Shown: positions 16,583 to 62,880 of the stretch, piece by piece
Layout: every line of letters begins with the position of its first letter
Position numbering within the stretch: the first letter of the stretch is position 1
Assembly: GCA_034440235.1 (NCBI GenBank)
Contig: JAWXBR010000011.1
Span: 64,787-128,786, forward strand
Direction of reading: 5' to 3'
Source: a bacterium
Lineage (GTDB): Bacteria; Bacteroidota; Ignavibacteria; Kapaibacteriales; Kapaibacteriaceae
DNA length: 64,000 nucleotides
Notes under the pieces: model-generated
What the model was told of the DNA's origin: nothing
The model's input: only the letters and a program-made list of their open reading frames with translations
Database searches by the model: none
Translations under genes and position numbers: made by a program

Positions 16583-18464
16583 CCAACGGTCTATCGCTGT
16601 GGTCGGCGTTCCGAATGTCGGCAAGTCTACACTCTTTAATGCGCTGACTGGACTCCAACAACGCGTCGGAAATTTTCCAGGCGTGACAATCGAGCCCATG
16701 GTTGGCTCGATTAATGAACGCGGTGAAAGCGTAACACTCATCGACCTGCCTGGGATTTATTCGCTCGATGCATCGAGCGAAGACGAGGTGCTTAGCGTCG
16801 ATGTCTTGCGTGGCGTGCATCGCAGCATACCAAAACCAGATGCCGTGCTACTTGTGATGAATGCAAGCAATCCGGACAAATGCCTTGCGCTGCATGCAGC
16901 ACTTACGACACTAAACATTCCTATGATCATCGCGGTTACGATGATCGACGATGTGAAAGCCTCGGGCGGCGTATTCGACGACATCGCGCTTTTTCATGAA
17001 CTGGGCGTGCGTGTCATGCCGGTGGTTGGACGCAAAGGCCTTGGCGTTGCAGATCTGAAGAGTGCACTGGTCGATCCATCAGCAGCCTTGATACCTCGTG
17101 CAGTGGATCTCGCACAAACTACAGGAGCACAGCCCTCCACAGGGTCTACAGAAGCACGAGTTGCATGGGCTGCACAACTCGTAGGGCGTGTTGTTATTCA
17201 TGGTAAGCGGAGTCGCCTCACCGAAAAACTCGATAACATTCTACTACACCCAGTGTTCGGCACACTTGCATTTGTCGTAGTGATGGCGCTGTTTTTTCAA
17301 GCGATTTTTTCGTGGTCAGAACCACTTATGAATCTTATTGAGAGCGGCATCTACGTGTTACGCGCCAACGCAGATGCGAACATTACGCACGATGTCCTAC
17401 GAAGCTTTGTGAGTAAGGGTCTTCTGGCAGGGGTCGGCGCCGTTATTGTTTTCCTACCGCAGATCCTTATACTAAACATTCTTATAACTGTGCTCGAAGA
17501 GTGTGGATACATGGCGCGAGCTGCGTTTTTGGTTGATAGGTTTATGGGACTGTTCGGACTTCAGGGACGCTCCTTTATTCCGTTGCTCGGTTCGTTTGCG
17601 TGCGCTGTGCCGGGCATTATGTCCGCTCGTATCATCCCATCCTACAAAGACCGCATAGCAACGATCATGGCTGCACCGCTCATGACTTGTTCAGCGCGCC
17701 TTCCGGTGTACACGTTGCTCATTGGTGCACTCATTCCATCTGCGGCAGTGTTTGGCATCTTCTCGTTACAAAGTATTGTGATGGCATCGCTGTTTGTTGC
17801 AGGTGCGCTAAGCGGACTTCTTATCGCGCTCGTGTTGAAGCGCACAATGTTCAAAGGCGACGTCGTGCCGTTCCTCATCGAATTTCCGCCGTACCGAGCC
17901 CCTTCACTACACAGTCTTTACGTTACAGTAGTTAATCGCACCAAAGACTTTCTTACAACAGCAGGCACTGTCATTCTTGCATTTAGCATTGCACTGTGGA
18001 TTCTTACAGAATTACCACGAACGAATGTTGGCAGCACCAGCGGTAACACGGCTGCTCTGCGTCTAGAGACAGAACGCACACAACTCGACTCTTCGTATGC
18101 AGCTTCGATAGGTAGAGCGGTGCAGCCCGTCTTCGCACCATTGGGATTCGATTGGCGCATTACGCTTGGCGTACTTGGGTCGTATGCTGCGCGCGAGACA
18201 TTTGTTAGTGTGATGGGTCAGGTCTACGCAGCCGACGTCAGCGCGAGCGACGTGCCGCTTCGCGAGGTCATTCACCGTGAACTTCCGTTGCCGGTCGGAC
18301 TGTCCCTTCTTGCCTACTACGTCTACGCCCTACAGTGTGTGAGCACCATGGCCGTAATGAAACGCGAAACGGGCACCTGGAAATGGCCCGCTCTTTCCTT
18401 CGCCATCACATTTGTTTTAGCCTACGCTGCTGCCTGGCTGACATTCATAATTGCCTCTAGCTAA
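16566..18464 (+). CDS. feoB: Ferrous iron transporter B (FeoB), with an N-terminal G-protein domain and a polytopic permease
   Basis: GTPase motifs ([24 protein letters not shown]) are followed by FeoB transmembrane Gate motifs. Confidence 0.9.
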
Positions 18465-18533
18465 CTGTTCGAAACGTTAAGGGGCCTGATATGGGGCTTT
18501 TTAAGGGGCATTTTGCGGTGTTTTCCAATCTTT

Positions 18534-18552
18534 ATTTGGACTAAATCCAAAT
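18534..18552. promoter_or_regulatory. Second copy of the palindrome ATTTGGACTAAATCCAAAT, about 40 bp upstream of CDS 18593
   Basis: Identical to the feoA operator-like palindrome. Confidence 0.55.
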
Positions 18553-18592
18553 AGAGCTTAGATTCGTCGCATACTCATTCAGGATTCAAGAC

Positions 18593-19726
18593 ATGTGTAG
18601 TGAAAACCTCGTTGCTCGTCAGGCTCTTCAGATTGGCCTACTAGTTCTCGTTGTCGGCGTCTTGTCCTCGTGCTCGGAAAGCACGACCCCCAACGATACT
18701 TTTACAATTCCAGCATACTATGACACCACGTCATGGCGGGCAAATGCGCAAGACGAACTTCTATATCTCGATCAGATAGGTGATTTGCTTACGTATTTGA
18801 AGAGTGCAAGAACGCAAGGTGTGAAGCTTATTCCAGTCGAGGTTGGTTTAAAGACTCTTGCTCTGTATCGTCTTTTCACGCCCGATGGTATCAATTTAAT
18901 CGAACAGAGAACCCAGAAAACTGTCGCGGCGAGCGGAAGTACCATGGATCCTATGAAGGACCCTGCCTACAACGGTACAGGTGGCGTATTCGTAAAGTAC
19001 CTTTTCGATCAGCATGGTACAGACGTTACCGAACAGGTAGAAAAGATGCTCTTCTCCGTCGCATTGCATAGGGCTGCAATGTCGGCCTTAGATACAGCTA
19101 CACCTACCACACGCAACGTCGATCGCGCGCTTGCTCTTTTCGGAGCTACCCCCGCATTCGCAAACTCTGACAAAGCGATTAAAAATGCAGACCGCTATTG
19201 CGCCGCTTATGCTGCGCGTCGCGATAAGAATGACGGTACGGGCTTCTATACAAATATTCGTGAAGCGTTTAAGAAGGCGCGCGCTGCCGCTGTTGACGCG
19301 AAGTATGACAAAGAATATCGCGAGGCTGTGCTTGCAATTCGTACAAACTGGGAGCGTTCGCAGATGGCTACCGCCATTAACTACTGCTATGCAACTAGTA
19401 CTGCATTGAGTGCGACGAACGTCAGCGACGACGCACGAGCTTCAGGTATGCACTCGTTCGGTGAAGCACTAGGCTTTCTCCTCGGCGCGAAGGCCACCGA
19501 TGTAGCATATCGTTCAATTACTGATGTGCAGCTTGGTGAAATCCTGACGCTTGCGCGTACATACACATTCAAGTCTCCCACCTACTATGAATTCTGGCAG
19601 ATGCCTGCCACGACGCTTGGTGACCTCAACACTATCACAGAACAACTTCAAGCGATCTATGGCTTCACCGAATCAGAAATGCAAGACTTCAATCAAAACT
19701 GGGTAACAGTGCAAACCCGCCAATAG
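18593..19726 (+). CDS. Lipoprotein of unknown function. Possibly iron-regulon associated and possibly DUF4856/imelysin-neighbourhood-like.
   Basis: Lipoprotein signal (...VLSSCSE). No catalytic motifs recognised. It shares the upstream palindrome with feoA. Confidence 0.4.
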   Translation: MCSENLVARQALQIGLLVLVVGVLSSCSESTTPNDTFTIPAYYDTTSWRANAQDELLYLDQIGDLLTYLKSARTQGVKLIPVEVGLKTLALYRLFTPDGINLIEQRTQKTVAASGSTMDPMKDPAYNGTGGVFVKYLFDQHGTDVTEQVEKMLFSVALHRAAMSALDTATPTTRNVDRALALFGATPAFANSDKAIKNADRYCAAYAARRDKNDGTGFYTNIREAFKKARAAAVDAKYDKEYREAVLAIRTNWERSQMATAINYCYATSTALSATNVSDDARASGMHSFGEALGFLLGAKATDVAYRSITDVQLGEILTLARTYTFKSPTYYEFWQMPATTLGDLNTITEQLQAIYGFTESEMQDFNQNWVTVQTRQ

Positions 19727-35643: not shown

Positions 35644-36060
35644 TTACGGCATTCCCTTGGAAATGGTATGCACAACGTAAATGCAAGCGTTGTCTACATA
35701 CACGACGCCAGCGGCGTCGCACTTTTCACGTCCGTGGTTGCTCGTAATACCCGACTGCAGCCACACACACGCTATATCGCCCTGTTTCTGCTTTCGCGCA
35801 AGTGCTTCGTCGATGATGGCGTCGGTTTTTTCGGACGGACGGAATACGTCCAGGATGTCGATATGCTCCTCAACATCCGCAAGCGTTGCATAGCAGCGCA
35901 TACCGTCGACGTCATCCGTAAACGGATTCACACCAACAACGGTATATCCAGCATCGCGCAAATAATGCGGAATGTCATGCGCCGGCTTTCCACTCTTACG
36001 AGAAAGCCCGTGCACGCAAATCACTTTTGCGCTGCGCAGCATTTCGACATCCTTTGTCAT
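35644..36060 (-). CDS. CoA-binding domain protein (YccU/YneT-like)
   Basis: KVICVHGLSRKSGKPAHDIPHYLRDAGYTVVGVNP matches the CoA-binding Rossmann-like fold. 138 aa. Confidence 0.7.
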   Translation of the reverse strand: MTKDVEMLRSAKVICVHGLSRKSGKPAHDIPHYLRDAGYTVVGVNPFTDDVDGMRCYATLADVEEHIDILDVFRPSEKTDAIIDEALARKQKQGDIACVWLQSGITSNHGREKCDAAGVVYVDNACIYVVHTISKGMP

Positions 36061-36094
36061 CGAACATCCTTTGTCATCGAAGATCCTTTGTCAT
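36044..36094 (-). repeat. Triplicated 17-nt translation-start region creating two 6-codon upstream ORFs (MTKDLR*, MTKDVR*) in ATGA overlap with the next start
   Basis: On the mRNA strand: ATGACAAAGGATCTTCG ATGACAAAGGATGTTCG ATGACAAAGGATGTCGAAATG... Each copy carries ATG ACA AAG GAT. The first two copies terminate at a TGA that overlaps the next ATG. Confidence 0.85.
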
Positions 36095-36123
36095 CACATT
36101 TAACTCACATAATCATTGCGAAA

Positions 36124-36680: not shown

Positions 36681-37319
36681 TCAATTCGACAATTGTGCTT
36701 TAAGTACCGACCACGTTGCTTCCGATGTGTCGGCAGCGCCTTTTGCATCGCTCCATCGCGAGATGCTCCAAAGTCCGCTAGGTTCTGGTGTAATTGTCAG
36801 GACCATGGTGCCGGTGAGGGTTGTGGAGACGCCAGTTAGCTCTATTGGTGCAGTTAAGGTGTAGTCAGAAACAAACACAATCGAGTCGGGCGATGTAAAC
36901 GCAACGTTGCTGTTCAGGTACTCGAGCAACGGATTTTCTTCAGTCGACAAGCGTGAGACGAAGGAGAGAAATGCTTGACGCTCTTTTTGGACGGACCATG
37001 TATTAAAGAGCGCAGAAAATCGCGAGCCTATTTCCGCCGATGGCTGAAACACATACGCGAAATTGCTACGCGTCGGAAAGTCAGCCAGACACAGCATAAA
37101 ATTCTCTGTGTTCTTCTCAATCACCGCATTCCGAAAATTATCAATCACAACCGATGCACTCGTCGGAGGTGTGAACAAGCCTCTTGCTGCTGTTGGGTTC
37201 TCGGGTGTGCGCGTCTGACATCCATTTAATATTAACCCTGCAATGACACCAGCAGCAAGTATCGCAGTAATCAGTATCAGCAGCCAGAGGCGTCGTGGTC
37301 TTGGTGTATGTGTAATCAT
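36681..37319 (-). CDS. Membrane-anchored or secreted protein of unknown function. A 16-bp tandem repeat lies at its 5' end.
   Basis: An N-terminal signal/anchor (LWLLILITAILAAGVIAGLIL). The start is probably the ATG at 37319, because the ORF track extension to 37349 runs through a tandem repeat (TGATTGCACATACCAA x2). Confidence 0.45.
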   Translation of the reverse strand: MITHTPRPRRLWLLILITAILAAGVIAGLILNGCQTRTPENPTAARGLFTPPTSASVVIDNFRNAVIEKNTENFMLCLADFPTRSNFAYVFQPSAEIGSRFSALFNTWSVQKERQAFLSFVSRLSTEENPLLEYLNSNVAFTSPDSIVFVSDYTLTAPIELTGVSTTLTGTMVLTITPEPSGLWSISRWSDAKGAADTSEATWSVLKAQLSN

Positions 37320-37349
37320 TTGGTATGTGCAATCACTTGGTATGTGCAA

Positions 37350-38138
37350 TCATGTGCGACGTGCAATCAGAATTGTACGCGGACTCTGCTCTGCATCGAA
37401 TGTTGCACCGTTGTAGTCGCCCAGAGTCTGCTCCACGACAAGTCGGGCCTCGGCAAACATCTTTACCAGCTCTGCGTGCTCGTACAACCACACACGTTCG
37501 TGAAATACAGTTTCATAGCTGCATGGGTCGCTAACAGTAATGGTTTTAGCAACAAACGGTTCGACAATGGCACGTTCCTGAATTAACGTCACATCGTCAA
37601 TCATCGACACAGTTTCGGCAACGAGCTCGCGGCGCACAACACGCGAGTTAAAGAAATCCATAATAAACACACCGCCATCAACAAGCGCATCATGCACGGC
37701 ATGTAACACCTTCATGTTCTCATCGTGCGAATCGAAATATCCAAAGCTTGTAAAAAAGTTGATAATCGCATCGTAAGGGGCTCCCGAAAAGGGTCCGCGC
37801 ATGTCCGCTACTTCGTAGCGCACATTCGCATGCGGATACACTTCACGAGCACGGTCTATTAAAAACCGCGATTGATCAATTCCCACAACGTTGTACCCGA
37901 TCTGCGCAAGTGCCAGTGCATGACGTCCGTACCCACAACACAAATCCAGCACGTGCGCCCCATTCGGAATGCGTGCATGTTTCGTAACAATCTCTGTTGC
38001 TTCTACAGCCTCGACGTCCGTGCGATGTCGGTAGAGGCGCATGTACCAGGGCGACTCGAACCACGTGGCGTACCACTCGGGCGTACTTGACCCTTGAGGC
38101 TTCAGTGGTGCGGCATTATCGTTTTGATGGGACTTCAT
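37350..38138 (-). CDS. Class I SAM-dependent methyltransferase
   Basis: SAM-binding motif I (VLDLCCGYGRHALALAQIGYNVVGIDQS) and the post-I acidic residue. Confidence 0.75.
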   Translation of the reverse strand: MKSHQNDNAAPLKPQGSSTPEWYATWFESPWYMRLYRHRTDVEAVEATEIVTKHARIPNGAHVLDLCCGYGRHALALAQIGYNVVGIDQSRFLIDRAREVYPHANVRYEVADMRGPFSGAPYDAIINFFTSFGYFDSHDENMKVLHAVHDALVDGGVFIMDFFNSRVVRRELVAETVSMIDDVTLIQERAIVEPFVAKTITVSDPCSYETVFHERVWLYEHAELVKMFAEARLVVEQTLGDYNGATFDAEQSPRTILIARRT

Positions 38139-40273: not shown

Positions 40274-41260
40274 GTGCAGTTGCATTTACTCAACAGCGGT
40301 CAACCGACCATAATGCTTACAAACAATTTTGGCACGGGGTCATGTATCACTGATGTAAACGGCACATTAAGCCTTTACGAGGGTACTGCTCGGTATTCAG
40401 CCCAAGAGGTACCTTACGACTTCTCGTTAGTTGCACATGCAACGGCCGGTAATCTATTACTAAGTACACGTAATTACGATAAGGCCATCCAGTTCGCTAC
40501 AACGCCAACAATCGGAGCAGACGACATCGTACGCTTGATCATAAAACCGTCGGGCTATGTTGGCATCAATCAATCTGACCCAAAGGAGCTACTTCAGATC
40601 GGCCATCTAATGACGTTTAATGAATATGGGTTCATGGGATTCAATGCCTATTGGGATGGGTCAAACATGAAGAACATGTACGCAAATAGGGCATCAGTAA
40701 CGATGGGTCTCGGAGATGCTCGCGTTGGTATACCAGAGCTGTTTGTAATAAATGTCGATGAACAGTCTACAAGTAATGCAACAATATTCGGCACGTTTAA
40801 AGGTATGTGTATCAGTACAGTGGGTGACATGGGTGTTGGCACACTAGCGCCAAAAAGTAAACTTCACGTATTTGGGGATGTTACTATTGGAGTAGATCGG
40901 TGTACAGCTTCTGTTTCTTCGGGTATTAACTATCGCTTGAGCGTTGATGGTGCAATCTTTGCAAAAGAAATTTGGGTTAAAGTATCCGATTGGGCCGACT
41001 ACGTCTTTGATCCTAACTACAACCTGATGCCATTGGCCGATCTGCAGGATTTCGTTAATGAGAATCGACATCTTCCTGGCGTGCCAAACGCAGAAGAAGT
41101 AGCGAAAGATGGGATTTCTGTGAGTGAGGTGCAGAAGAATCTGTTGTTGAAGGTCGAGGAGTTGACACTGTATATACTTCAGTTGTCAAAACAAAATGAA
41201 ACTCTTCAACAGGAGTTTGCGGCGATCAAAAAGCAGTTATCTGCGCAATCGTCCAAGTAG
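40274..41260 (+). CDS. Tail-fibre-like domain protein, of the Bacteroidota cell-surface tail fiber domain-containing type. It may be N-terminally truncated.
   Basis: Repeats GYVGINQSDPKELLQI / GVGTLAPKSKLHVFGDVTI. Conserved C-terminal module ...AKEIWVKVSDWADYVFDPNYNLMPLADLQDFVNENRHLPGVPNAEEV...KVEELTLYILQL plus a coiled coil. No signal peptide at the annotated start. Confidence 0.5.
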   Translation: MQLHLLNSGQPTIMLTNNFGTGSCITDVNGTLSLYEGTARYSAQEVPYDFSLVAHATAGNLLLSTRNYDKAIQFATTPTIGADDIVRLIIKPSGYVGINQSDPKELLQIGHLMTFNEYGFMGFNAYWDGSNMKNMYANRASVTMGLGDARVGIPELFVINVDEQSTSNATIFGTFKGMCISTVGDMGVGTLAPKSKLHVFGDVTIGVDRCTASVSSGINYRLSVDGAIFAKEIWVKVSDWADYVFDPNYNLMPLADLQDFVNENRHLPGVPNAEEVAKDGISVSEVQKNLLLKVEELTLYILQLSKQNETLQQEFAAIKKQLSAQSSK

Positions 41261-41323
41261 TTGCACTGCCGCAGTAAGACTTCACCTCAGCGATTATTGT
41301 GTTCCAACCGACGGAGTCGAATT

Positions 41324-41800
41324 ATGCTAAACAAGTGTCTTACTGCTCTGATTGTGTTCGGAGTAATCATCTTCTGCCTCGAAGCATGCAGCCCTCCATT
41401 TGCACCAGAAATCGATGGGGTAGTCTCTATCCAGTATGTCTCAGCATCACCGCAGTTCGGATCCCAGACATTAACGGTGGACAGCAGTAGTATTCGATAC
41501 ATCAAATACGTTCCGAATTACCCTCCATTTTCGAGGGACACAGTTGTTCAGGACTCAGTGTTTCTGGTGGCAACTTTGACGAAAGTTAATATGGTATTAA
41601 TACTGCTTCAAAACGATGCGGTCGACCCAGGCGTATTGCGACTCGACGGTGGATATAGCATCATGACGATAATTTATCGGCGAAAATCGGATTTACAGGA
41701 GACGACAAAGATTGTTAAATACACAGATCCTCCGCCATCCAGTCTACTCATACTTGATCATGCGATGGTCGAGAAATTGATTCAAATTCATGACAATTAA
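41324..41800 (+). CDS. Lipoprotein of unknown function
   Basis: Signal peptide plus lipobox (VIIFCLEACSPP). The ORF track start at 41261 probably over-extends. Confidence 0.4.
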   Translation: MLNKCLTALIVFGVIIFCLEACSPPFAPEIDGVVSIQYVSASPQFGSQTLTVDSSSIRYIKYVPNYPPFSRDTVVQDSVFLVATLTKVNMVLILLQNDAVDPGVLRLDGGYSIMTIIYRRKSDLQETTKIVKYTDPPPSSLLILDHAMVEKLIQIHDN

Positions 41801-41804
41801 CTAG

Positions 41805-42195
41805 GTGGAGATCAACATGTGTAAATCGAGTGGTCGTTCCGCGCGTAGACTGTACATTATTATCGCATGCTTATTGATTGCGAGTTGGTCAGGACGTGCA
41901 TTGGCAATTTCTGCAAGTCCACTTGACACACTCTTCATAAGCACATCAGTTACTTCGCGATCGGTTGACACAGTTCTTTCGGCAGGGATCTACGCCCAGC
42001 TTGACACCGCGAAACACATCTCTCACCATCTACGACCAACTTGGCCGCATTGTAGAAACGCTGTTTGATGAAGAGTTGGAGGCAGGTAGGTATGAGTTCA
42101 ACTATGCAGTTAGTAGCCTGTCTGCAGGCTTATGCTTCTGTGTTTTAGAAGCTAGTGGCTCGATGGTATCGAAACAATTGATCGTAGTCCACTAA
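41805..42195 (+). pseudogene. Frameshifted mini-gene consisting of a signal peptide followed directly by a T9SS C-terminal sorting domain and nothing else
   Basis: Frame A (41805-42068) gives the signal peptide plus the CTD start (ISASPLDTLFISTSVTSRSVDTVLS...). Frame B (41965-42195) gives the rest of the CTD (SLTIYDQLGRIVETLFDEELEAGRYEFNYAVSSLSAGLCFCVLEASGSMVSKQLIVVH). A single indel near 41985-42000 would restore one roughly 125-aa ORF. Confidence 0.5.
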
Positions 42196-42360
42196 AAACA
42201 CGGTAAGGCATTAGCGATGCCATATTTCCGTACAAAATGGCATTGCCATTGCCATATCTCCTTTCATAATGGCATTAGAGTTACCAAATTTACTTGCAAA
42301 ATGGCATTTGAGTTGCCAAATTTACTTGCAAAATGGCATTAGCGTTGCCATATTTGCGGT
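42196..42360 (+). promoter_or_regulatory. Array of five tandem sigma54-like -24/-12 motifs (TGGCAT-N5-TTGCC, which are also TGGCA-N7-TGCCA palindromes), spaced about 35-40 bp, ending 10 bp before the ATG of the AAA+ ATPase gene
   Basis: GGCATTAGCGATGCC; TGGCATTGCCATTGCCA; TGGCATTAGAGTTACCA; TGGCATTTGAGTTGCCA; TGGCATTAGCGTTGCCA. Each is followed by (A/T)ATTT...CAAAA. Confidence 0.5.
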
Positions 42361-43497
42361 ATGGATCACTCTAGACATAGACTGTTAACTCCGCCTAAGG
42401 GCCATTTTTTCCTGTTGGGACCTAGGGGAACGGGCAAAACGTTATGGACACAGCAGGTTTTTCTGGATGCTCTGCGGATAGATTTACTCGATCCGGAGAC
42501 ATTTCGTGTGTTCGCTGCGGGTACTGAGAGATTGAGGGACGTAATAGCTGCACATCCTGAAGTAAAAACGGTTGTCATCGACGAGATTCAGAAGCTTCCG
42601 ACGCTTCTGGAAGGTGTTCATCTATTGATTTCAGAACAGGTGAAGTACCAGTTTGTGCTTACTGGTTCTAGTGCCAGAAAACTTCGACATGGAAATGTTA
42701 ACCTACTGGGCGGACGTGCGGTGATGCGGACAATGCATCCGTATGTAGCCAAAGAACTTGGTGCCGATTTCGACCTCGATGAACATTTAAAAACGGGACT
42801 TGTGCCTGTTGTAGTGGAGTCGCAAAACCGACACGACACGTTACGTGCATACAACGCGCTGTACATACGCGAAGAAGTCTTTGCGGAAGGACTTGTTCGC
42901 AACATGGAACAGTTCGCACGATTCCTCGAGGCGATAAGCTTCTCACAAGGGTCGATGCTAAACGTCACGAACGTTGCGAGCGATTCTTATGTCAAACGGA
43001 AAACAGTTGAGAACTACATTGAAATTCTCGAAGACTTGATGCTTGCGTTTCGTCTGACTCCGTTTACGAAGCATGCAAAACGTCAACTGGTGTCGCACCC
43101 TAAGTTCTATTTCTTCGATGTCGGTGTATACCGCGCTAACCGTCCATCGGGAAGACTCGATGACGCAGGATCTGTCGAAGGCATCGCTCTTGAAACGATC
43201 GTTGCGCAGCACCTAAAAGCTCGATCCGACATAGCTCGTGACAATAGTAAACTCTATTACTGGCGAACAAGATCGGGTGTTGAAGTCGATTTTGTTGTGT
43301 ACGGTAATGACATCTTCGAGGCCATTGAGGTGAAGAATAGTAGTAGGGTACGTCCAGAAGATTTGAGGGGGCTTCGAACGTTTATCGAAGACTACCCGCA
43401 GGCTAAAGCCACTTTGTTGTATCGAGGAAAAGAGAGCCTGATGCAGCACGGTATACTCATCATGCCCATCGATGAATGGTTGCCGACGTGTTACTAA
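42361..43497 (+). CDS. AAA+ ATPase with C-terminal DUF4143-type domain (ATP-binding protein)
   Basis: Walker A (LLGPRGTGKT) and Walker B (VVIDEIQK). The C-terminal region is typical of DUF4143 (...YYWRTRSGVEVDFVV...IEVK). Confidence 0.75.
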   Translation: MDHSRHRLLTPPKGHFFLLGPRGTGKTLWTQQVFLDALRIDLLDPETFRVFAAGTERLRDVIAAHPEVKTVVIDEIQKLPTLLEGVHLLISEQVKYQFVLTGSSARKLRHGNVNLLGGRAVMRTMHPYVAKELGADFDLDEHLKTGLVPVVVESQNRHDTLRAYNALYIREEVFAEGLVRNMEQFARFLEAISFSQGSMLNVTNVASDSYVKRKTVENYIEILEDLMLAFRLTPFTKHAKRQLVSHPKFYFFDVGVYRANRPSGRLDDAGSVEGIALETIVAQHLKARSDIARDNSKLYYWRTRSGVEVDFVVYGNDIFEAIEVKNSSRVRPEDLRGLRTFIEDYPQAKATLLYRGKESLMQHGILIMPIDEWLPTCY

Positions 43498-43531: not shown

Positions 43532-45655
43532 CTAGGGCGTCCGCGCCGTTATCCGAATGCTTCTGTTCAAGAAGCGACCTTGTGGCGTTAGGTCGGCGAA
43601 GCGCGAGCCTGTGGTCGAGGTCTCGATAGTAAACGTGTTTCCTACCAGCGAACGGATGAAGGCTTCGGTGACGCGTGCGCGTTGCTCGGAGAGTTCTTTG
43701 TTGCGTGTGTCGGTGCCGAGGATGTCGGTGCTGCCGAAGACGGTCAGGGCGGAGCCGGAGGGGAGGCGCTCGGTGAGCTGACGTAGCAGAGAACGGACGT
43801 CTTCGTTGAGCTCTGAGGAGTTGTAGTCGAAGCGCAGAATGGCTTCGAAGTCTGTCGTCTTGAGGTCGATGCGACGTCGTGGAAGCTTCGAGGCGTCGAC
43901 ATCTGCGAAACGTTCTGCAAATGCGCTGCCGGCTTCGGCTGTTACACGCACACGTGCCGATGTTGCATCGGCGGGAAGTGCAGCGCGGAAGGGAACGTTG
44001 ACGTTGCTGGACTTGATTGCAACGGTTGTGTCGGTGTTGCCAACGTGCACACGCATGGTGCTGCCCACGACGTTAATGCCTGCGGCCTTGACGTTCATGG
44101 TGCCACGCACTTCTGAGAATTGCTGCACGGTGACCCATTCTTGAAGTGGAGCGTTGGTAACAACGAGGTCGACGCGACGGTTTTCTTCGCGTCCTGCTGG
44201 AAATTCCTGGTTCGAAGAAATGCGCGGTGCAAGTAACGCACGCGTTTGTATGCGCGATGCTTCTACGCCTAGGTCGACAAGCACTTGTTTTACACTTTGT
44301 GCGCGACGCTCTGAGAGTGCTGTGCCTTGTGCTTCGTCCGCGCCGCTCGTAGCCCCTTCGAGCACGACCCTTCCCTGAGGATTACGCTTCAGGATGTCTG
44401 CAATACGCACGAGTACCCACGAGTGCGCTTGTATTGGGTCGGAAGACGGAATGCTGCCATCGTTCGAACGGCGATAGGTTGTGGGAATAGTCGACGCAGT
44501 ACTGTCGAAGAACACCGCATTGATGATCGGTGCCGTTGCAAGAAGTTCGTCGCCCGTTACAACTTCGGCCGATACGAGCGTGGGTTGGTCGAGTGCGATG
44601 GTGGGCGGACGTGTGTCGATTGCAATTGGCGGTGGCGGTGGAATTGGGTCGGGCTTCTTTGGGGTAGGGGGCTCCTCGGCTTTCGATTTAAAGCCGAAGC
44701 GTATGCCCACCTCTGCGCGAATGCCGAGGAGTTTCCAGTCGGCATCGGTGAGCATAGAGTTGAAGAAGTAGTCGAACGATAGTTGTGGGACGATTGCAAT
44801 TGTATTGGAAACAGTTATAAAAGATTCCAATGATGCACTTGCGCCAAACATTGCACTTGCACGCGTAGAAAACACACCCGATGCAATCGGCCGCTGCAGT
44901 GAGCTTTGTCCGTTCACCAAGAACGTTGCGTTGCCCTGGTCGGAAATTGATTCGATTTGCTCGAAGCGGCTGGAGAGGGGAAGAGCGATACGCGGACCAA
45001 TCACGAGTCCGAGCGATCGCGATTCATAAGAACCAAGAAGTGCGATGCGCACATCGGGTTGAATTTCTAGAAACGAGAGACTTGGTTGTAGCTCGACGGT
45101 TGTTGTGAGTTCTAAATCGGTGTTTGTTGCTGTGTCGCGAACCGGATAAACGTTTGTGCGCTTGAATTGTCCGGAGCGTCCCGAAAAGCCAAGTCCGATG
45201 CCAAAACCCCAAGTGTCGGCGGCACGCAATTCGAGAATTGCGTTAAAAGACGGACCCGCCCCGTTACCGAATTCGAACTGACCACAATCGATTACATCGA
45301 GTGAACTGCTGAACGATGCGCTATACGTTGTGAGAGCAATGCCCCCTTGCACACGCATGGCAAACGATTCACGCTGTGCGGATGCCGTCGTTAGGGCAAG
45401 CAACACACATACGGAGCTTAAAAAGCCCCTTACCAGAAAGGCACTAAAAGAGCCCCTTACCGAAAAGGCGTTAAAAGAGCCCCTTACCGAAAAGGCGTTA
45501 AAAGAGCCCCTTACCGAAAAGGCGTTAAAAGAGCCCATTACAAGCATTGTTCGAACGTTGGGTCGTGTCATGGCCGACAAAGATAGCTGGCGTAATGTCA
45601 CGGGAATGTTACGACGCCAAGACGAGTGGCGAACGGCATCACGGCAGGGCGACAT
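43532..45655 (-). CDS. Outer-membrane beta-barrel protein with a Pro-rich linker and two OmpA-like domains, a paralog of 6299-8533. The N-terminal region carries a 10-aa tandem repeat (GSFNAFSVRG x4).
   Basis: Signal peptide (...LSSVCVLLALTTASAQ) is preceded by the repeat. A beta-barrel region is homologous to 6299-8533. Linker PPTPKKPDPIPPPPPIAIDTRPP. OmpA modules (VVLEGATSGADEAQG...RRAQSV; LTVFGSTDILGTDTRNKELSEQRARV). The start codon is uncertain. Confidence 0.65.
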   Translation of the reverse strand: MSPCRDAVRHSSWRRNIPVTLRQLSLSAMTRPNVRTMLVMGSFNAFSVRGSFNAFSVRGSFNAFSVRGSFSAFLVRGFLSSVCVLLALTTASAQRESFAMRVQGGIALTTYSASFSSSLDVIDCGQFEFGNGAGPSFNAILELRAADTWGFGIGLGFSGRSGQFKRTNVYPVRDTATNTDLELTTTVELQPSLSFLEIQPDVRIALLGSYESRSLGLVIGPRIALPLSSRFEQIESISDQGNATFLVNGQSSLQRPIASGVFSTRASAMFGASASLESFITVSNTIAIVPQLSFDYFFNSMLTDADWKLLGIRAEVGIRFGFKSKAEEPPTPKKPDPIPPPPPIAIDTRPPTIALDQPTLVSAEVVTGDELLATAPIINAVFFDSTASTIPTTYRRSNDGSIPSSDPIQAHSWVLVRIADILKRNPQGRVVLEGATSGADEAQGTALSERRAQSVKQVLVDLGVEASRIQTRALLAPRISSNQEFPAGREENRRVDLVVTNAPLQEWVTVQQFSEVRGTMNVKAAGINVVGSTMRVHVGNTDTTVAIKSSNVNVPFRAALPADATSARVRVTAEAGSAFAERFADVDASKLPRRRIDLKTTDFEAILRFDYNSSELNEDVRSLLRQLTERLPSGSALTVFGSTDILGTDTRNKELSEQRARVTEAFIRSLVGNTFTIETSTTGSRFADLTPQGRFLNRSIRITARTP
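45418..45545. repeat. 30-bp tandem repeat of about 4 copies (AAAAGAGCCCCTTACCGAAAAGGCGTTA) in the 5' coding region of the OmpA-like gene
   Basis: Seen in the sequence. In-frame, encoding GSFNAFSVRG repeats located before the signal-peptide hydrophobic core. Confidence 0.9.
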
Positions 45656-48413: not shown

Positions 48414-51346
48414 TATGCGTACTCCTCGATACTAGGGCATGTACAAATAAGCACACGGTCGCCGTATGCATTGTCTACACGGCCAATGCTTGGCCAGAAT
48501 TTTCTATCGCGTACCCATGAGAGCGGATACACAGCCTGCTTGCGCGTGTACGGATGTGTCCATTCGTCCGCCGTTGCCACATACTGCGTATGCGGAGCGT
48601 TTTTAAGCACGTTGTCTTTAGCATCGACAACACTTAGGCACACATCTTCAATTTCTTTACGAATGGAAAGTAACGCGTCGCAGAACCTGTCGATCTCGGC
48701 CTTGCTTTCGCTTTCCGTTGGCTCAATCATAATTGTTCCGGGAACAGGGAAGCTTAGCGTCGGAGCGTGAAAACCATAATCCATAAGGCGTTTTGCGATG
48801 TCCTCTGCTTCGAGTCCACCACGTTGCTTGAATTCGCGTAGGTCGACAATCATCTCGTGCGCAACGCGACCCTTCGCACCCTTGAACAAAATGCTGTAGT
48901 GGCCTTCGAGGCGCTTCGCAATGTAATTGGCATTAAGAATCGCAACGCGCGTTGCATCGGTGAGCCCCTTACTGCCCATCATGGCGATGTATGCGTAGCT
49001 GATAAGCAGAATAGATGCTGAGCCCCAAGGTGCGGCAGAGACGGCGCCTGCTGCAGGAACGCCATTGCCGACAACATGTACGCCATTGCCGACAACAGGA
49101 ACGCCATGGCCGACAACATGTGCGCCGGTTTGTGACCTAGTGGGGGAAATAACGGGGTGACCAGGGAGGTAGGGGGCTAGCTCGGTGGTAACGCAGATCG
49201 GACCCATACCGGGACCGCCACCGCCGTGCGGAATGCAGAATGTTTTGTGAAGATTAAGGTGACATACGTCGGCACCTATGGTGCGCGGACTTGTTAAGCC
49301 CACTTGCGCATTCATGTTTGCGCCGTCCATGTACACACGTCCGCCGTGCTCGTGAATAATCGAGCAGACTTCCTTAATCGATTCTTCGAACACACCGTGT
49401 GTTGAAGGGTACGTTACCATTAATGCAGCAAGATCTTTTGCATGTGCATCGGCCTTCGCACGCAAGTCGTCCATATCGACGTGTCCGTCGGCGTCTGCCT
49501 TCACAACCACAACCTTCATGCCTGCCATGACAGCCGACGCAGGGTTTGTGCCGTGTGCGCTGCTCGGTATGAGCACAATATTTCTATGCGACTGTTTGTT
49601 TGCGATGTGCAGAGAGCGAATTGCAAGGAGTCCGGCATACTCGCCCTGCGCACCTGCATTCGGCTGAAGCGAACACGCATCGAAGCCAGTGATTTCGCAC
49701 AACCAGTGCTCGAGCTCGTGAAAGATTTGTGTGTAGCCAGCAGTTTGTTCGCGTGGCACAAACGGATGAATTGCGTTGAACTCGGGCCACGTGAGCGGAA
49801 TCATCTCGGCCGTTGCATTCAACTTCATTGTGCACGAACCAAGCGAGATCATGCTATGTGTAAGCGAGAGGTCTTTGTTTTCGAGGCGTTTCAAATACCG
49901 CAACATTTCGTGTTCGGTGCGGTGCTCATGAAATGTCGAATGAGTTAGATAGTTCGATGTACGATGAAGAGATGTGGGGAGTCCGGCATTCTTCGTTAGA
50001 CGTGCACCACTCGTTGGCGACACATCATACTTCGAAGATGCAACTACATCAAAACACGCTAATACATCGGCAAGGTCTGCTGCTGTTGTTGTTTCGTCGA
50101 ACGATATGCCAACAGTTTGTTTTGCGTCGTTATATGCAAAGTTTATTGCTTTAGAAGTTGCAATTGCTCGCACTGCGTTTGTATCGGCAGCAACAGTAAC
50201 AGTGTCGAACCAAGCGCCGTTCACGATGGTGTGTCCTGCGGCAATCAGAGCTTCGACTAGTGCATTCGAAAGCGCGTGTACCTGGTGCGCAATGTTGCGA
50301 AGTCCGTCGGGACCATGATACACCGCATACATCGCAGCAACATTCGCAAGCAATGCTTGTGCTGTGCAGATGTTCGATGTTGCTTTGTCGCGACGAATAT
50401 GTTGCTCGCGTGTCTGCAATGCCATCCGATAAGCGAGATCGCCTTGTGCGTCTATGCTCACCCCAATGATACGTCCGGGCATAAGGCGCTTGTACTGCTC
50501 ACGCGTGGCCATGAAGGCCGCATGAGGTCCGCCATAACCGAGTGGCACACCAAACCGCTGCGTCGACCCAACAGCAACGTCGGCACCAAACTCGCCCGGA
50601 GGCACAAGCAATGTTAATGCAAGCAGGTCGGTACCAACCGTTACAAGTGCTCCGCCTTCGTGTGCGGCATCGCAGAATGTTTTGTAGTCGTGGATGTCAC
50701 CATCAAGTGTCGGGTACTGCACGTACGCACCGAACACAGTGCCATCGAATGTTGCACTGCGCCAATCACCAACTTGAATGTTAATGCCTAGTGGCTCGGC
50801 ACGAGTTTTCAACACGTCGAGTGTTTGTGGAAACACATTTGTGTCGACAAACAATGTCAGTGCATCTTTCGCATTCGCACCACGCGCAGCATACATCAAA
50901 TGCATTGCTTCTGCCGCAGCAGTTGCTTCATCGAGAAGTGACGCATTTGTGATCTCGAGTTTTGTGAGATCGATAATCATCGTCTGAAAATTCAACAACG
51001 ATTCGAGACGACCCTGCGAAATCTCGGCCTGGTATGGCGTGTACTGTGTGTACCATCCCGGATTCTCTACAACGTTGCGCAGAATTACAGCAGGAGTAAT
51101 CGTGTCGTAGTAACCCATGCCGATGTACGTGCGCCAATTTTTGTTGCGCGCACCAACAGCACGCAAATGTTTTAGCAATTGCGTTTCCGTTAGGGCAGGG
51201 GGCAGGTCGAGGGACTTCTTCAGCCGTATGTCGGCAGGAATTGTCTCGTCGATCAGCGCATCGAGTGTGGATGCACCCACAACACCGAGCATGGAAGAAA
51301 GATCGTCTTGTGAACGTCCGAGGTGACGTGAAGCAAAGTCAGTCAT
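48413..51346 (-). CDS. gcvP: Glycine dehydrogenase (decarboxylating), glycine cleavage system P protein. It contains an in-frame tandem-repeat insertion.
   Basis: Full-length single-chain GcvP (977 aa) with the PLP-lysine region. An extra roughly 25-aa loop, [26 protein letters not shown], is encoded by a 21-bp x3 DNA repeat. Confidence 0.9.
49059..49121. repeat. 21-bp in-frame tandem repeat x3 (ACGCCATTGCCGACAACATGT) inside gcvP
   Basis: Seen in the sequence. It encodes HVVGNGV-like heptads. Confidence 0.9.
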
Positions 51347-51396: not shown

Positions 51397-52728
51397 ATGA
51401 TAAAAACCCTTGCTCTTCCTTTGTGTCTCGTCGTCGTGACACTTGCCTGTTCGTATGACAAAGTCTCGGCGCAGGATTTTCTGCAACGAAAATACGCCAC
51501 ACGTGTCGAGCGCGACATCGTCTACGGAACCGCCACCGGCTTTGCGGGCAAGTTGGATACCCTGAGATTGAATTATTGGAAGCCCCACGCCGACGGTAAT
51601 CCGAGGCGGCCCCTTATCATTTTTGTGCATGGAGGGGGCTTTACAGGGGGCTCTAGGACTGACTTCGACGTGTTATGCGAGGGATACGCACAGCGCGGAT
51701 ATGCGGCCGCAACCATAAGTTATCGGTTAGGCTTTCATCCGCCTCCTCTCATGGCGAACCCTTACGCCTACGACACTGCCGAGGTCGTACGTGCGGCCTA
51801 CAGAGCGTCGCAGGACCTGTTCGGAGCTGCAAGATTTCTTGTCAAACGTGCATCGTTAGACTCGGTGAGCGTGTCGTCAATGATTATCGGCGGCGCCAGC
51901 GCCGGAGGCATTACTGTATTGCAGGCCGCATACATTTCAGAGAATGAACGCTACGGTTGTACACGAGCGTTTGCAGATGTGCCGGGCATTGGGGTTGCCG
52001 GAAAACGTCCGGACCTAGGCCCAACCACAGGCACCCTTCACGCCGATGCGGCAACTCCACGCATCCTTGCCGTCGTAAATCTGTTCGGCGCAATTCCGGA
52101 CACGTCGTTTATTGAACGCGCGGACGATCCTGCGATGTATCAGTATCACCAGACAGGCGACCCCGTCGTGTCATGCGTGTACGCAAAGGGCTTATGGAGT
52201 TATCCGTTCGGCATTCCGGACAACTATTACTTTGTGCACGGCTCCTGCAACATAAAAAAGCGTCTCGATAACCTCGGCTACACATCTGCACGGCATCGCT
52301 CTTGGATTTTTAATGGTAGTGTGCATGGCTTTCACGGCGCAGCAGCAGTCGAAATAGATATCGCAGATTTTTTAGCACCACTTACGCGTGACGCGCTCAC
52401 ATCGGTCGACGATGATGCCTTCGAAAGCGAGCGCAACGATTCATCGAAGGATCGCACTAATAACGACCTAACTAGTAAAGACCTAACGAATAAAGACCGA
52501 ACTAATAAAGACCGAACTAATAAAGACCGAACTAATACTGTGATGTCCGATGGAGCGACAGTAGTTGTTATGGACCTAGCTGGACGTCTAGTCTTTCAGG
52601 GCACCGATGCTCATCCCTCAGGTGCTCATTTCCCTAGTGCTCATCTCACAAGAATGCTGAACCTGCCCATTGGGGCTTACATCATGAAAATTGGTGTTGA
52701 AACACGGTTATTTCTAGTTCTTCGTTAA
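51397..52728 (+). CDS. Secreted alpha/beta-hydrolase (esterase/lipase family) with a tandem-repeat linker and T9SS C-terminal sorting domain
   Basis: Signal peptide (MIKTLALPLCLVVVTLACS). HGGGF oxyanion motif and the GGASAGG nucleophile elbow. Linker (NDLTSKDLTNKDRTNKDRTNKDRTN). CTD (...VVVMDLAGRLVFQG...GAYIMKIGVETRLFLVLR). Confidence 0.7.
   Translation: MIKTLALPLCLVVVTLACSYDKVSAQDFLQRKYATRVERDIVYGTATGFAGKLDTLRLNYWKPHADGNPRRPLIIFVHGGGFTGGSRTDFDVLCEGYAQRGYAAATISYRLGFHPPPLMANPYAYDTAEVVRAAYRASQDLFGAARFLVKRASLDSVSVSSMIIGGASAGGITVLQAAYISENERYGCTRAFADVPGIGVAGKRPDLGPTTGTLHADAATPRILAVVNLFGAIPDTSFIERADDPAMYQYHQTGDPVVSCVYAKGLWSYPFGIPDNYYFVHGSCNIKKRLDNLGYTSARHRSWIFNGSVHGFHGAAAVEIDIADFLAPLTRDALTSVDDDAFESERNDSSKDRTNNDLTSKDLTNKDRTNKDRTNKDRTNTVMSDGATVVVMDLAGRLVFQGTDAHPSGAHFPSAHLTRMLNLPIGAYIMKIGVETRLFLVLR
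52450..52537. repeat. 15-bp in-frame tandem repeat (AATAAAGACCGAACT x3 plus degenerate copies) in the esterase linker
   Basis: Seen in the sequence. Confidence 0.85.
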
Positions 52729-60978: not shown

Positions 60979-62880
60979 CTACCACACCACACTGGTTGAA
61001 TCACCCAACTTCAAAACGTATAAACCCTCAGCAATAAACGGCAGCGGTATGGTGAGTGTTAATGACCCCGACACGTCCGCCGCATACACCCGGCGTCCGA
61101 GCATATCAAACAACTCAACGGTCTGTGTTTGTTTGATCATCGACTTGTCGATCGCAATGTTGAGTGTCTGCTTATCACGATCGATGTACGCTGAGATGGT
61201 GGATGAATGATTATTGTTTGCAGTTGCATCTCCCGAATTCGCGTCGTCGGCGTTTGCATCTCCCGAATTCGCGTCGTCGGCGACATCTGTCGGACCTGCC
61301 AGGAGGTCTTGCACGGCGTGCATTTTGTAGTTGCGGTAGGGTTTGGTGTAATCGTCGGTTAGGCCCCAGCAGCCGTAGCGATTATAGCCGGAGACGAGGG
61401 TGAAGTACATGGCGAGGCCACCGTCGAGGGCTTGCCAGCCTTCGCGGTAGTTGTATGTGACGACGTCGCGCATGCGCTCTGTGCGGTGCGATGAAATCTG
61501 GGCCGAGAGGTTGGCGTTGAGTCCGAACGGGACGTGTGCGCCCCCTTCGTACGAAGTACAGCCCCCTACGAGATTCCACTGTTTTGCTTTGTTGGTGTGG
61601 TTGCGCCGATAGGTCGATAGCGATGTATTTGTTAGCTGCGCAGTAATGTCTTCAATCATGCCTTCGTTAATCTGTAACGGGTCTGGGTTGTCGGCCCGCG
61701 TAGAGCCGTGGTAGAGGGCCGTGCTTGTTGCGTAGATGAAGTTGCGGGGCAAACCAAATACGCGGTCTATGTAACGAAGGTGATTATCACTTCTTCCATG
61801 ATATGCATGTTGTCCGGCCAGAACAACACGAATACGTTTATTAACTGCGTTTGCACCAAACACCATTCCGAACCACTGCGACAGTTGCACCGTGCGATGT
61901 GCGTATTGTTCGTCGAACGTTATGCCGCGGGCGGCAGAGGCGGCGGCGTTGTAGGGTCCGTGTGTTAGCTGCGTCGGACTCCATACTTCGTTGCTGTTTT
62001 CGACATAAATGTTAATTGACGGGTCTAGCGAATCCTGCAGCATTCTCGCGAGACTCGTTACATAACCCGAGTCGCACGACATGTGAATGTTAATCCAGAT
62101 GTCCTTCTTCAGAATGTTTGCAAGCTCTACAATGATGTCCCAGCTCCACCCTTCGCCTCGACCTTGAAGGCTGGCCAGTGGCACTTGCGAAGCGGACGCT
62201 CTGGTCTTGCGCATCGACCACTGCATCACTGTCGGGTACGTTGGCTCGCCGCTCCAGATGTTCTGCACATTGTAATATCTGTAACACGTAAAGTCAGCGG
62301 CCTTGCATAGAGCGAGGTAAGCGTCGGTAAACGTCTGCGTGGCAAATCGGTCGTAACCCGGACGATGTACAACCAAATTGGTAATACCCGAGTTTGCAGC
62401 ACCAGCGGGAAGTGCCTTCGTATTCGAGAATTGCAAAAACACGAGGCCGTGATTTGCACTGTTCGCAGCACCAACAACAAGGTCGAACGTAGAAATATTC
62501 GAGACTGCGTTGTACTGCATGTTTTCGACCGAAACAGCAGTGCCCGTTGCGACCACATCTGCACTACCGGTGAAGTGCGCCAGATATCGTCCGCTGTAAT
62601 CGACCCGGTACACTTCTGGGTCGTCGATCGTCTGCGTCCATTCCGTCGCGGGACGTCCGTCGAACAGCACAAGCGAAAAGTCGCTCTGCGGCCAGCCATT
62701 GGCATCAAACGACGTCGCACCCGAATACCTGTTTGTGTGCTTTACCACATCCACAAACGCACCCTGTGCGTCTAGATTCACTCCGAGATTGACAGGGGGC
62801 TGCGCAAGCGCAGAAGGGGCAACTGACAGCACGAAGAGGACGATGGCTACTATGCGAACTGACTTCATACATAACTCCAA
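60979..62880 (-). CDS. Secreted protein with T9SS C-terminal sorting domain and a tandem-repeat linker. Possibly a TIM-barrel glycoside-hydrolase-like enzyme.
   Basis: Signal peptide (...VAPSALAQ). Linker DDANSGDANADDANSGDATANNN. CTD ...VELFDMLGRRVYAADVSGSLTLTIPLPFIAEGLYVLKLGDSTSVVW. An ENSNEVW motif is reminiscent of a GH catalytic NE(P) motif. This last point is speculative. Confidence 0.55.
   Translation of the reverse strand: MELCMKSVRIVAIVLFVLSVAPSALAQPPVNLGVNLDAQGAFVDVVKHTNRYSGATSFDANGWPQSDFSLVLFDGRPATEWTQTIDDPEVYRVDYSGRYLAHFTGSADVVATGTAVSVENMQYNAVSNISTFDLVVGAANSANHGLVFLQFSNTKALPAGAANSGITNLVVHRPGYDRFATQTFTDAYLALCKAADFTCYRYYNVQNIWSGEPTYPTVMQWSMRKTRASASQVPLASLQGRGEGWSWDIIVELANILKKDIWINIHMSCDSGYVTSLARMLQDSLDPSINIYVENSNEVWSPTQLTHGPYNAAASAARGITFDEQYAHRTVQLSQWFGMVFGANAVNKRIRVVLAGQHAYHGRSDNHLRYIDRVFGLPRNFIYATSTALYHGSTRADNPDPLQINEGMIEDITAQLTNTSLSTYRRNHTNKAKQWNLVGGCTSYEGGAHVPFGLNANLSAQISSHRTERMRDVVTYNYREGWQALDGGLAMYFTLVSGYNRYGCWGLTDDYTKPYRNYKMHAVQDLLAGPTDVADDANSGDANADDANSGDATANNNHSSTISAYIDRDKQTLNIAIDKSMIKQTQTVELFDMLGRRVYAADVSGSLTLTIPLPFIAEGLYVLKLGDSTSVVW
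61216..61275. repeat. 30-bp in-frame tandem repeat x2 (GCATCTCCCGAATTCGCGTCGTCGGCG..)
   Basis: Seen in the sequence, inside the linker of CDS 60979-62880. Confidence 0.85.

Follow-up and report, generated by a model that had tools for sequence, protein, structure and literature searches.

In a 64,000-nucleotide stretch of contig JAWXBR010000011.1 from a member of the Kapaibacteriaceae (the whole stretch is referred to below as the window), we found five tandem 32-bp units directly upstream of a gene for a DUF4143 AAA+ ATPase, each with the palindrome TGGCA-N7-TGCCA, the last of them adjoining the start codon (ATG at 42361). Comparison with the upstream regions of homologous genes suggests that the ATPase probably represses itself at this tandemly duplicated promoter-operator of its own gene. 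This reading is based on the anatomy of the repeat, on how it is conserved and where it lies relative to promoter-like hexamers, on the lack of a conserved partner gene, and on a covariation between the protein and the DNA element.

The units fill positions 42205-42360, starting at 42205, 42237, 42269, 42301 and 42333, with the final unit shortened to 28 bp, and they occupy 156 of the 165 bp that separate the ATG from the stop of the open reading frame (ORF) 41965-42195. Tandem Repeats Finder (TRF) described the segment 42207-42355 as 4.7 copies of a 32-bp period with 80% matches (score 172), and a separate repeat search gave copy spacings of 32, 32 and 32 bp. The layout of a unit is ATGGCA-N7-TGCCAT followed by an A/T-rich tail, and the palindrome is present in 5/5 units with 0-1 mismatch. 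The motif TGGCAT-N5-TTGCC, with at most one mismatch, occurs nine times in the window compared to 1.33 expected occurrences, a number that was reached in none of 100 shuffled sequences; five of the nine matches fall inside the array. The motif is exact in three units (42238, 42302 and 42334), unit 3 has TTACC in place of TTGCC, and unit 1 reads AGGCAT..ATGCC on the plus strand and yields a one-mismatch match on the minus strand only. The same five units, differing by a few single-nucleotide polymorphisms, recur on each of four independent metagenome contigs with an identical protein, indicating that the array is real and stable, and not an assembly artefact. The claim of five repeated motifs upstream of the ATPase gene, made in an initial annotation from the letters of the sequence, is borne out by the repeat search, the spacing, the palindromes and the four contigs; the unit length given there, 35-40 bp, has to be corrected to 32 bp. 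Population variants within the array, seen when contigs L086-L089 were compared with window positions 42120-42375, leave the copy number constant: unit 2 has GCCA or GCCG in its N7, and in contig L089 the TTACC of unit 3 is replaced by TTGCC (a repaired arm), with further changes in units 4-5.

We gathered 80 homologous loci from reference genomes and 80 from metagenomes, which yielded 154 non-redundant loci with upstream sequence from Kapaibacteriota, Verrucomicrobiota, Proteobacteria, Planctomycetota, Chlamydiota, Cyanobacteria, Nitrospirota, Gemmatimonadota and other phyla. A 5-N7-5 palindrome with at most one mismatch (palindrome A) was found at -37..-24 in 99 of the 154 loci, and in 61 of them it lies exactly 31 nt upstream of the start, compared to a background of 2% per position in the same loci. 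Conservation in the aligned upstream regions starts at about -39, and the consensus unit is (TTGcAA)aa-TGG[C/A]R-N7-Y[G/T]CCA-wwTTGnGnCnCAAww-ATGG. It includes another palindrome, B, which is centred at -7, has CCAT/ATGG in common with palindrome A and includes the start codon. In the window, the last unit contains a shortened version of the family-wide CCAwwTTGnGnCnCAAwwATGG, and the internal units keep palindrome A, the conserved B core being absent from them; in units 1 and 3, an arm is mismatched. The half-sites vary among loci (TGGC, TGGA, TGAC, TAGC, TTAC), and symmetry is maintained. For example, position 4 of the half-sites forms a C-G pair in 18 of the canonical loci and an A-T pair in 10, both arms changing together. 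The dyad symmetry has thus been kept in evolution, as is expected of an operator. The closest homologs on long contigs also have arrays of 32-bp period with the last unit adjoining the ATG, in their case with the palindrome ATGGCG-N7-CGCCAT.

All-against-all BLAST of the flanking ORFs of 82 loci revealed no conserved partner gene, and no family recurs beyond close relatives. The largest clusters consist of short ORFs beside the gene start (7 loci) and of a second ORF of ~380 aa (5 loci). Because no flanking gene family recurs across the 82 loci, the gene and its upstream element can be regarded as an autonomous module, and a specific binder of the element should either come from the module itself or be universal. 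The suggestion in the initial annotation that the units might belong to a small dispersed repeat family is unsupported, since the 64-kb window contains no other good copy and the motif is tied to this gene across phyla.

Several further observations concern the loci themselves. The second ~380-aa ORF lies within ~3 kb of the ATPase gene in L018, L029, L043, L060 and L069; if these ORFs are paralogs, as we presume, the family sometimes occurs in neighbouring copies. No relative was found in the phage collection, and the sole plasmid-borne relative found is at 17673-18821 of NC_015710.1, a conjugative plasmid of Simkania negevensis Z (36% identity). Deltaproteobacterial-type relatives (L037, L042, L046, L054, L065, L069, L139, L151) have a different layout in the upstream 100 nt, namely TTGCAT, TTTTAAC-N-GTTAAAA, AAATTGAGACGCAATTT and another TTAAC-like arm, with the ATG ~25-50 nt further downstream. 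In L056 and L080, one of which is labelled Parachlamydiales, palindrome B (ATGCCAAAATGAGACTCAAAATGGCAAC) is located ~40 nt upstream of the called start and is followed by ATGG; the assigned start is 15-18 nt downstream of that ATGG, so either the true start is different or there is a short N-terminal shift.

Promoters were predicted using a flexible scan for TTGACA-(16-18)-TAnnnT. Among the loci with TGGC half-sites, the best sigma-70 promoter has its -10 hexamer at -16 in 14 of 17 cases, so that the palindrome would fill the spacer between -35 and -10 and transcription would start ~3 nt before the ATG. Among the TGGA loci, the -10 is at -39..-36 in 18 of 23 cases, so that the palindrome would cover the transcription start. 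Shuffled sequences placed at most 0.8% of promoter calls at any one position. The site is, by prediction, one that overlaps the core promoter or the start. Shine-Dalgarno-like 4-mers precede the ATG in 9/21 loci of the upstream-promoter type vs 2/24 of the spacer type (p = 0.013), a difference that fits leadered mRNAs in the former and leaderless mRNAs in the latter. In the window, the mRNA is most likely leaderless, from the predicted sigma-70-type promoter TTGCAA-17-CATATT; the predicted start is ~42361, the seventh base after CATATT being the A of the ATG. Weaker copies of this promoter are present in units 3 and 4. A leaderless mRNA with a start near the ATG had been proposed in the initial annotation and is recovered here, but from a promoter of another type. 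The host looks like a member of the FCB group (Fibrobacteres-Chlorobi-Bacteroidetes), with Por_Secre_tail and DUF5683 genes as neighbours and with relatives in Kapaibacteriota and Ignavibacteria. The sigma factor of the host may instead recognise the Bacteroidota-type motif TTG...TAnnTTTG, which the proximal unit also approximates, and the same start is predicted from it.

The protein-DNA covariation was quantified as the mutual information between the operator class and each of the 378 protein columns, using columns outside the predicted helix-turn-helix as a control for shared ancestry. Residue 212 ranked 1/378 in the first set of loci and again in the doubled set (0.80 bit, with 0.58 for the runner-up); in the structural model, it occupies the N-cap, just before the predicted recognition helix. 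Glutamate is found at this position in 22/27 TGGA loci vs 0/29 TGGC loci (Fisher 4e-11, not formally corrected for phylogeny). A tree from which the helix-turn-helix columns were left out shows at least 8 switches of operator class, and residue 212 changes along with them. Residue 214 is lysine in 59/60 loci with GG in both arms vs 27/39 others (p = 4e-5), and the loci without K214 have TGAC, TTAC or CGTAA half-sites. The protein encoded in the window has K212 and K214, as expected for its TGGC(A) operator. A regulator's specificity should match its operator, and the covariation of residues 212 and 214, without formal correction for phylogeny, agrees with this. Residue 215 is I/M/A in L037, L042, L046, L054 and L069, and always T in the TGGC class. 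Codon 2 (42364-42366 in the window, and its equivalents elsewhere) also covaries with the operator class, GAA going with TGGA, GCN with TGGC and ACG with TGAC; it is GAA in 25/27 TGGA loci and GCN in 15/29 TGGC loci. This leaves two readings, one in which the gene start acts as an additional arm of the site and one in which recombination homogenises the units with the gene start; the second amino acid of the protein thus seems to be subject to DNA-level constraint or to concerted evolution.

The 378-aa protein matches AAA_14 (8e-17) and DUF4143 (1.3e-34) in Pfam and seven PADLOC models of PDC-S01 (best 1.5e-51), and both the profile hidden Markov models and the architecture of ATPase plus PD-(D/E)xK domain place it in PDC-S01. 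Its relatives number in the thousands and are spread over many phyla, the best being 69% identical. The AlphaFold2 (AF2) model has an overall predicted local distance difference test (pLDDT) score of 74.7 and three parts: an AAA+ core, a helical region, and a C-terminal domain of alpha-beta-beta-beta-alpha-beta topology with conserved E308, D310 and E323-V-K325. Residues ~182-236 are modelled with moderate confidence as three helices, including a helix-turn-helix, plus a hairpin; the secondary structure comprises helices 202-209 and 213-225 and the short hairpin. A fold search with the whole model returned AAA+ cores only, at low template modelling scores (RFC, DnaA, RuvB and ORC ATPases). The isolated segment, modelled separately with low to moderate confidence, returned nearly exclusively winged-helix regulators (MarR/MepR/MosR, IclR-type, Rio2, DeoR), the best match not being significant (E = 0.37). 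A search of solved structures by sequence gave generic AAA+ matches only. PDC-S01 has been described as an ATPase fused to a PD-(D/E)xK domain and ranked as the fourth most common candidate defence in prokaryotes, with ~39,000 instances detected; most such candidate defences still await validation (PMC12988326). The DUF4143 domain appears among the PD-(D/E)XK families of unknown function (PMC3424549). In the full-text literature on DUF4143, PDC-S01 and COG1373, we found nothing on a cis-element or DNA specificity, and this instance of an operator and its link to residues 212 and 214 appear to be undescribed so far. The coordinates of the features are collected in Table 1.

Table 1. Features of the array, the predicted promoters and the downstream gene (positions in the window)
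Feature	Position	Strand	Basis or remark
Array of five 32-bp units	42205..42360	+	TRF period, unit spacing, same copy number on four contigs
Palindrome A1, AGGCA-N7-TGCCA	42206..42222	none	One arm mismatch
Palindrome A2, TGGCA-N7-TGCCA	42238..42254	none	
Palindrome A3, TGGCA-N7-TACCA	42270..42286	none	One mismatch; TTGCC in contig L089
Palindrome A4, TGGCA-N7-TGCCA	42302..42318	none	
Palindrome A5, TGGCA-N7-TGCCA	42334..42350	none	Proximal putative operator; counterpart of family-wide palindrome A; half-site class covaries with residues 212, 214
Palindrome B5, CCATA-N7-TATGG	42348..42364	none	Overlaps right arm of A5, -10 and start codon
-35-like hexamer TTGCAA, predicted proximal promoter	42326..42331	+	Promoter scan; family-wide TTGACA/TTGCAA at equivalent position
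Second TTGCAA copy	42294-42299	+	
-10-like hexamer CATATT, 17 bp after TTGCAA	42349..42354	+	Promoter scan
Extra sigma-70-like site TTGCCA-16-CATAAT	42243..42270	+	10/12 matches; not conserved in homologs
Gene for 378-aa AAA+ ATPase - predicted winged helix - PD-(D/E)xK-like protein (AAA_14 + DUF4143; PADLOC PDC-S01)	42361..43497	+	Pfam, PADLOC, AF2 model
Predicted helix-turn-helix and wing, codons 200-236	42958..43068	+	AF2; covariation of residues 212, 214
Codon 212 (K)	42994-42996	+	
Codon 214 (K)	43000-43002	+	

Upstream of the array, the region 40274-42195 looks like a decayed gene: two ORFs in one frame, 40274-41260 and 41261-41800, are split by a TAG only, with a TAA at 41798, and the 76-aa ORF 41965-42195, in another frame, has a sub-threshold match to Por_Secre_tail (7e-5, below the Pfam cut-off). 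Positions 41801-42360 are uncalled in the public gene calls. A tblastn search of the window with the upstream genes of the closest homologs gave no match and no synteny.

Taking these observations together, we propose the following mechanism, in which binding, repression, the transcription start and the role of the extra copies are inferred from sequence. Each 32-bp unit would be a copy of the promoter-operator of the gene, with a -35-like TTGCAA, a 17-bp spacer occupied by TGGCA-N7-TGCCA, and a -10-like CATATT or CAAATT. The copy nearest the gene would start transcription at or beside the A of the ATG, producing a leaderless mRNA. The protein, composed of ATPase, winged helix and nuclease-like domain, would bind the palindrome as a dimer via the N-terminal end of its recognition helix (residues 212-215) and occlude RNA polymerase, so that the gene would limit its own expression. 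The four upstream copies, 32 bp or ~three helical turns apart, would all present their sites on one face of the DNA and may tighten repression, supply extra promoters, add sites for cooperative occupancy or serve as a platform for oligomerisation of the ATPase. The array itself would have arisen by 32-bp tandem duplication between direct AAAATGGC arms, the second of which, in single-unit relatives, is the start codon region. The possibility of a reiterated operator array for a dimeric transcription factor, which the initial annotation had listed as an alternative, is the one that the comparative data favour.

Requiring the same half-site core in each unit, a count that is too low where a unit is degenerate or out of register, we found one unit in 104 loci, two in 13, three in 3, four in 1 and five in 1, the window; at least two units are present in 18 of the 154 loci, and the five units of the window are the largest count seen. 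L004 and L005 have three units and a degenerate fourth. The unit spacing is exactly 32 bp in 24/26 cases, in lineages with different half-sites. In single-unit loci, direct AAAATGG arms already occur twice at a distance of 32 bp, the downstream one at the start codon, and slippage between them could readily produce arrays. The window is rich in other tandem repeats as well, with 2-5.5 copies of 15-30 bp units (8673-8771, 36047-36095, 37306-37369, 45418-45541, 49059-49126, 52456-52537 and 61224-61282). Some of these are coding, such as 4.6 copies of a 27-bp unit near the 5' end of an OmpA-family gene and 5.5 copies of a 15-bp unit close to the 3' end of an esterase-like gene; others are intergenic, such as the 17-bp units at 36047 and 37306. 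This abundance suggests a genome prone to tandem duplication.

Other explanations of the array differ in how well they account for these data. The initial annotation read the units as five tandem sigma-54 (RpoN) promoters, each TGGCAT-N5-TTGCC being a -24/-12 element and the last one firing at the ATG. The GG-N10-GC spacing is indeed present in 4/5 units (AC in unit 3), the last unit would put the start near 42361, and the closest relatives (L001-L007) also keep GG...GC, owing to their TGGCG/CGCCA palindrome. However, no unit matches the sigma-54 consensus TGGCAC-N5-TTGCW within one mismatch; GG and GC are both present in just 15 of 30 canonical orthologous elements, TTGC occupies the -12-equivalent position in 2/30 canonical loci, and TC replaces GC in 11/30. 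In addition, the bases past the -12 GC (CCA) mirror the left arm, a symmetry with changes on both arms that sigma-54 does not need, and sigma-70-like hexamers lie at fixed positions around the palindrome. A six-frame translation of the 64-kb window contains no GAFTGA, GESGTGK or RpoN-box motif, which is weak evidence at that scope. We consider the sigma-54 reading rejected by the comparison, as neither GG/GC nor TTGC is conserved in orthologs, and we can hardly credit it any longer. The likeness to a -24/-12 promoter is that the GG-N10-GC spacing coincides with the palindrome in the window and in TGGC-class relatives, whereas the symmetry extends beyond the sigma-54 elements. This is a caution for motif scanning: the TGGCA-N7-TGCCA palindrome mimics the -24/-12 spacing through symmetry alone. 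Hairpins in RNA (or in single-stranded DNA), which would either hide or uncover the start codon by forming stem A or stem B as alternatives, or act as tandem terminators for the upstream gene, are very improbable in our estimation. Both arms change together, A and B would be mutually exclusive through the shared CCAT/ATGG and B includes the AUG, the plus strand folds better than shuffled sequences (z = -3.56), and two units are flagged as terminator-like. Nevertheless, the predicted TGGC-class -10 is downstream of palindrome A, which would leave A outside the transcript; its inner pair shows, on the sense strand, seven A.C mismatches vs two G.T; and B is complementary up to its centre (positions -8/-6: G-C in 21 loci, C-G in 4), which would leave a 1-nt loop, impossible for a hairpin. 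Moreover, the predicted minimum free energy structure pairs different units and not local stems, and the covariation of the half-site with a protein residue is left unexplained. The folding z-scores of the two strands are -3.6 and -2.3, with inter-unit pairing as for any repeated palindrome, and do not discriminate between the models. A known RNA family was rejected as a candidate, as Rfam gave no match at the gathering score in the whole window, nor at E up to 1 in 41900-42600.

The palindromes could also be operators for a host regulator encoded outside the module, with the ATPase not binding them at all. Dyad symmetry and a position over the promoter would suit any dimeric repressor, and the winged-helix call for the ATPase is moderately supported; yet the element accompanies the gene in unrelated contexts, in many phyla and without a conserved neighbour, and the half-site class tracks ATPase residues 212 and 214 through repeated switches, which makes this explanation improbable. 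Somewhat less unlikely, though still a minor candidate, is an array that is mainly an assembly or loading platform in the style of iterons or DnaA boxes, on which the AAA+ protein oligomerises to become active, or an origin or recombination site. The resemblance of the ATPase core to the initiator and clamp-loader AAA+ proteins (RFC, DnaA, RuvB, ORC), the strict 32-bp phasing in independent lineages (24/26 spacings) and the covariation of codon 2 with the half-site, as though the gene start were a further arm, are all consistent with such a platform. Conversely, a single unit was counted in 104 of the 154 loci, the site invariably lies over promoter-like hexamers beside the start codon, no replication or integrase genes recur nearby, and the phage and plasmid collections yielded one relative, a distant one on a plasmid; it should be noted that a platform is compatible with autoregulation, and not exclusive of it. 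A more serious possibility, which we nevertheless hold to be doubtful, is that the proximal unit alone works, the other four having accumulated neutrally through replication slippage in a repeat-prone genome. Other tandem repeats abound in the window (30 TRF rows, several of 3-5 copies), the arms of units 1 and 3 are mismatched, the internal units are without the conserved B core, and direct arms 32 bp apart are an obvious substrate for slippage. Against neutrality, none of the four independent contigs has lost a copy, the -35, palindrome and -10 are intact in units 4 and 5, and multi-unit arrays recur in at least 18 loci.

Repression of the ATPase gene by its own product, to which we return as the preferred explanation, has to be weighed against several points. 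There is no palindrome at the expected place in 55/154 loci under the criteria used, and the extra copies in the window may be decaying, given the internal units without the B core and the arm mismatches in units 1 and 3. The winged-helix call depends on an AF2 model that is of moderate confidence, its relevant blocks having pLDDT values of 51-80, and a Pfam scan of the segment alone gives DUF4143 only, with no helix-turn-helix call. The housekeeping sigma factor of the host, as a bacterium of the FCB group, may not use -35/-10 hexamers. The control for the covariation consisted of internal columns and a tree obtained by the unweighted pair group method with arithmetic mean (UPGMA), which is not a formal phylogenetic model; also, the operator class was assigned only where both arms agree, and the canonical set was chosen for palindromy.

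If the product does bind the palindrome of its own promoter, this subfamily gains a predicted specificity for DNA, apparently set by two residues (212 and 214), and the movement of a potentially toxic ATPase-nuclease between phyla would be explained simply by its being a self-contained and self-limiting single gene. A bolder extension, which we regard as speculative and unlikely, is that PDC-S01/DUF4143 proteins are ATP-driven machines for sequence-specific DNA recognition. The palindrome in the own promoter would then reveal the target and residues 212/214 would constitute a recognition code; the phased array would be a platform for nucleation that holds the AAA+-nuclease as an inactive DNA-bound oligomer until foreign DNA with the same site, or another trigger, titrates it away and so releases or activates it, so that self-repression and target sensing would be one binding event.

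Comparison with known systems places the array as follows. The protein of the window matches the PADLOC models of PDC-S01 and has the ATPase and PD-(D/E)xK parts described for it (PMC12988326). The literature found is silent about a cis-element of PDC-S01 and about any specificity for DNA. A repressor on palindromic operators over its own promoter is a familiar kind of device, with lambda OR/PRM-cI, MarR-type operators and DnaA autoregulation as the nearest parallels. As in MarR-type repression, the palindrome lies in or over the -35/-10 region, and the nearest folds of the isolated segment are MarR/MepR/MosR winged helices, although not significantly so; however, Pfam assigns the segment to DUF4143 only, with no MarR membership by sequence, and the predicted DNA-binding module is embedded in an ATPase-nuclease that has no ligand-binding dimerisation domain of the MarR kind. 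DnaA with the DnaA boxes of the dnaA promoter, and Orc1/Cdc6 with origin recognition boxes, are AAA+ proteins that regulate themselves on reiterated sites beside their own genes. The array shares with them an initiator/clamp-loader-like AAA+ protein with a predicted DNA-binding domain and reiterated sites beside its gene, whereas DnaA boxes are asymmetric 9-mers and the sites here are dyad-symmetric (5-N7-5), without a sign of an origin, most family members having one site. The Rep proteins of iteron plasmids are winged-helix proteins that bind an inverted repeat over their own promoter, with phased reiterated sites nearby; a predicted winged-helix protein, an inverted repeat over its own promoter and phased repeats are likewise found here, but on a chromosome, with no replication module, and the repeats are whole promoter-operator units and not separate iterons. 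In the OR/PRM-cI system of phage lambda, tandem 17-bp palindromic operators lie over a promoter, a dimeric repressor controls its own gene, and the mRNA is leaderless. The array resembles this system in its 17-bp palindromes over a promoter, its presumed dimeric self-binder and its predicted leaderless mRNA. In contrast to lambda, there is no divergent promoter or switch partner, the presumed binder is a 378-aa AAA+ ATPase with a nuclease-like domain and not a small repressor, and the units are strictly 32 bp apart, each with its own -35 and -10.

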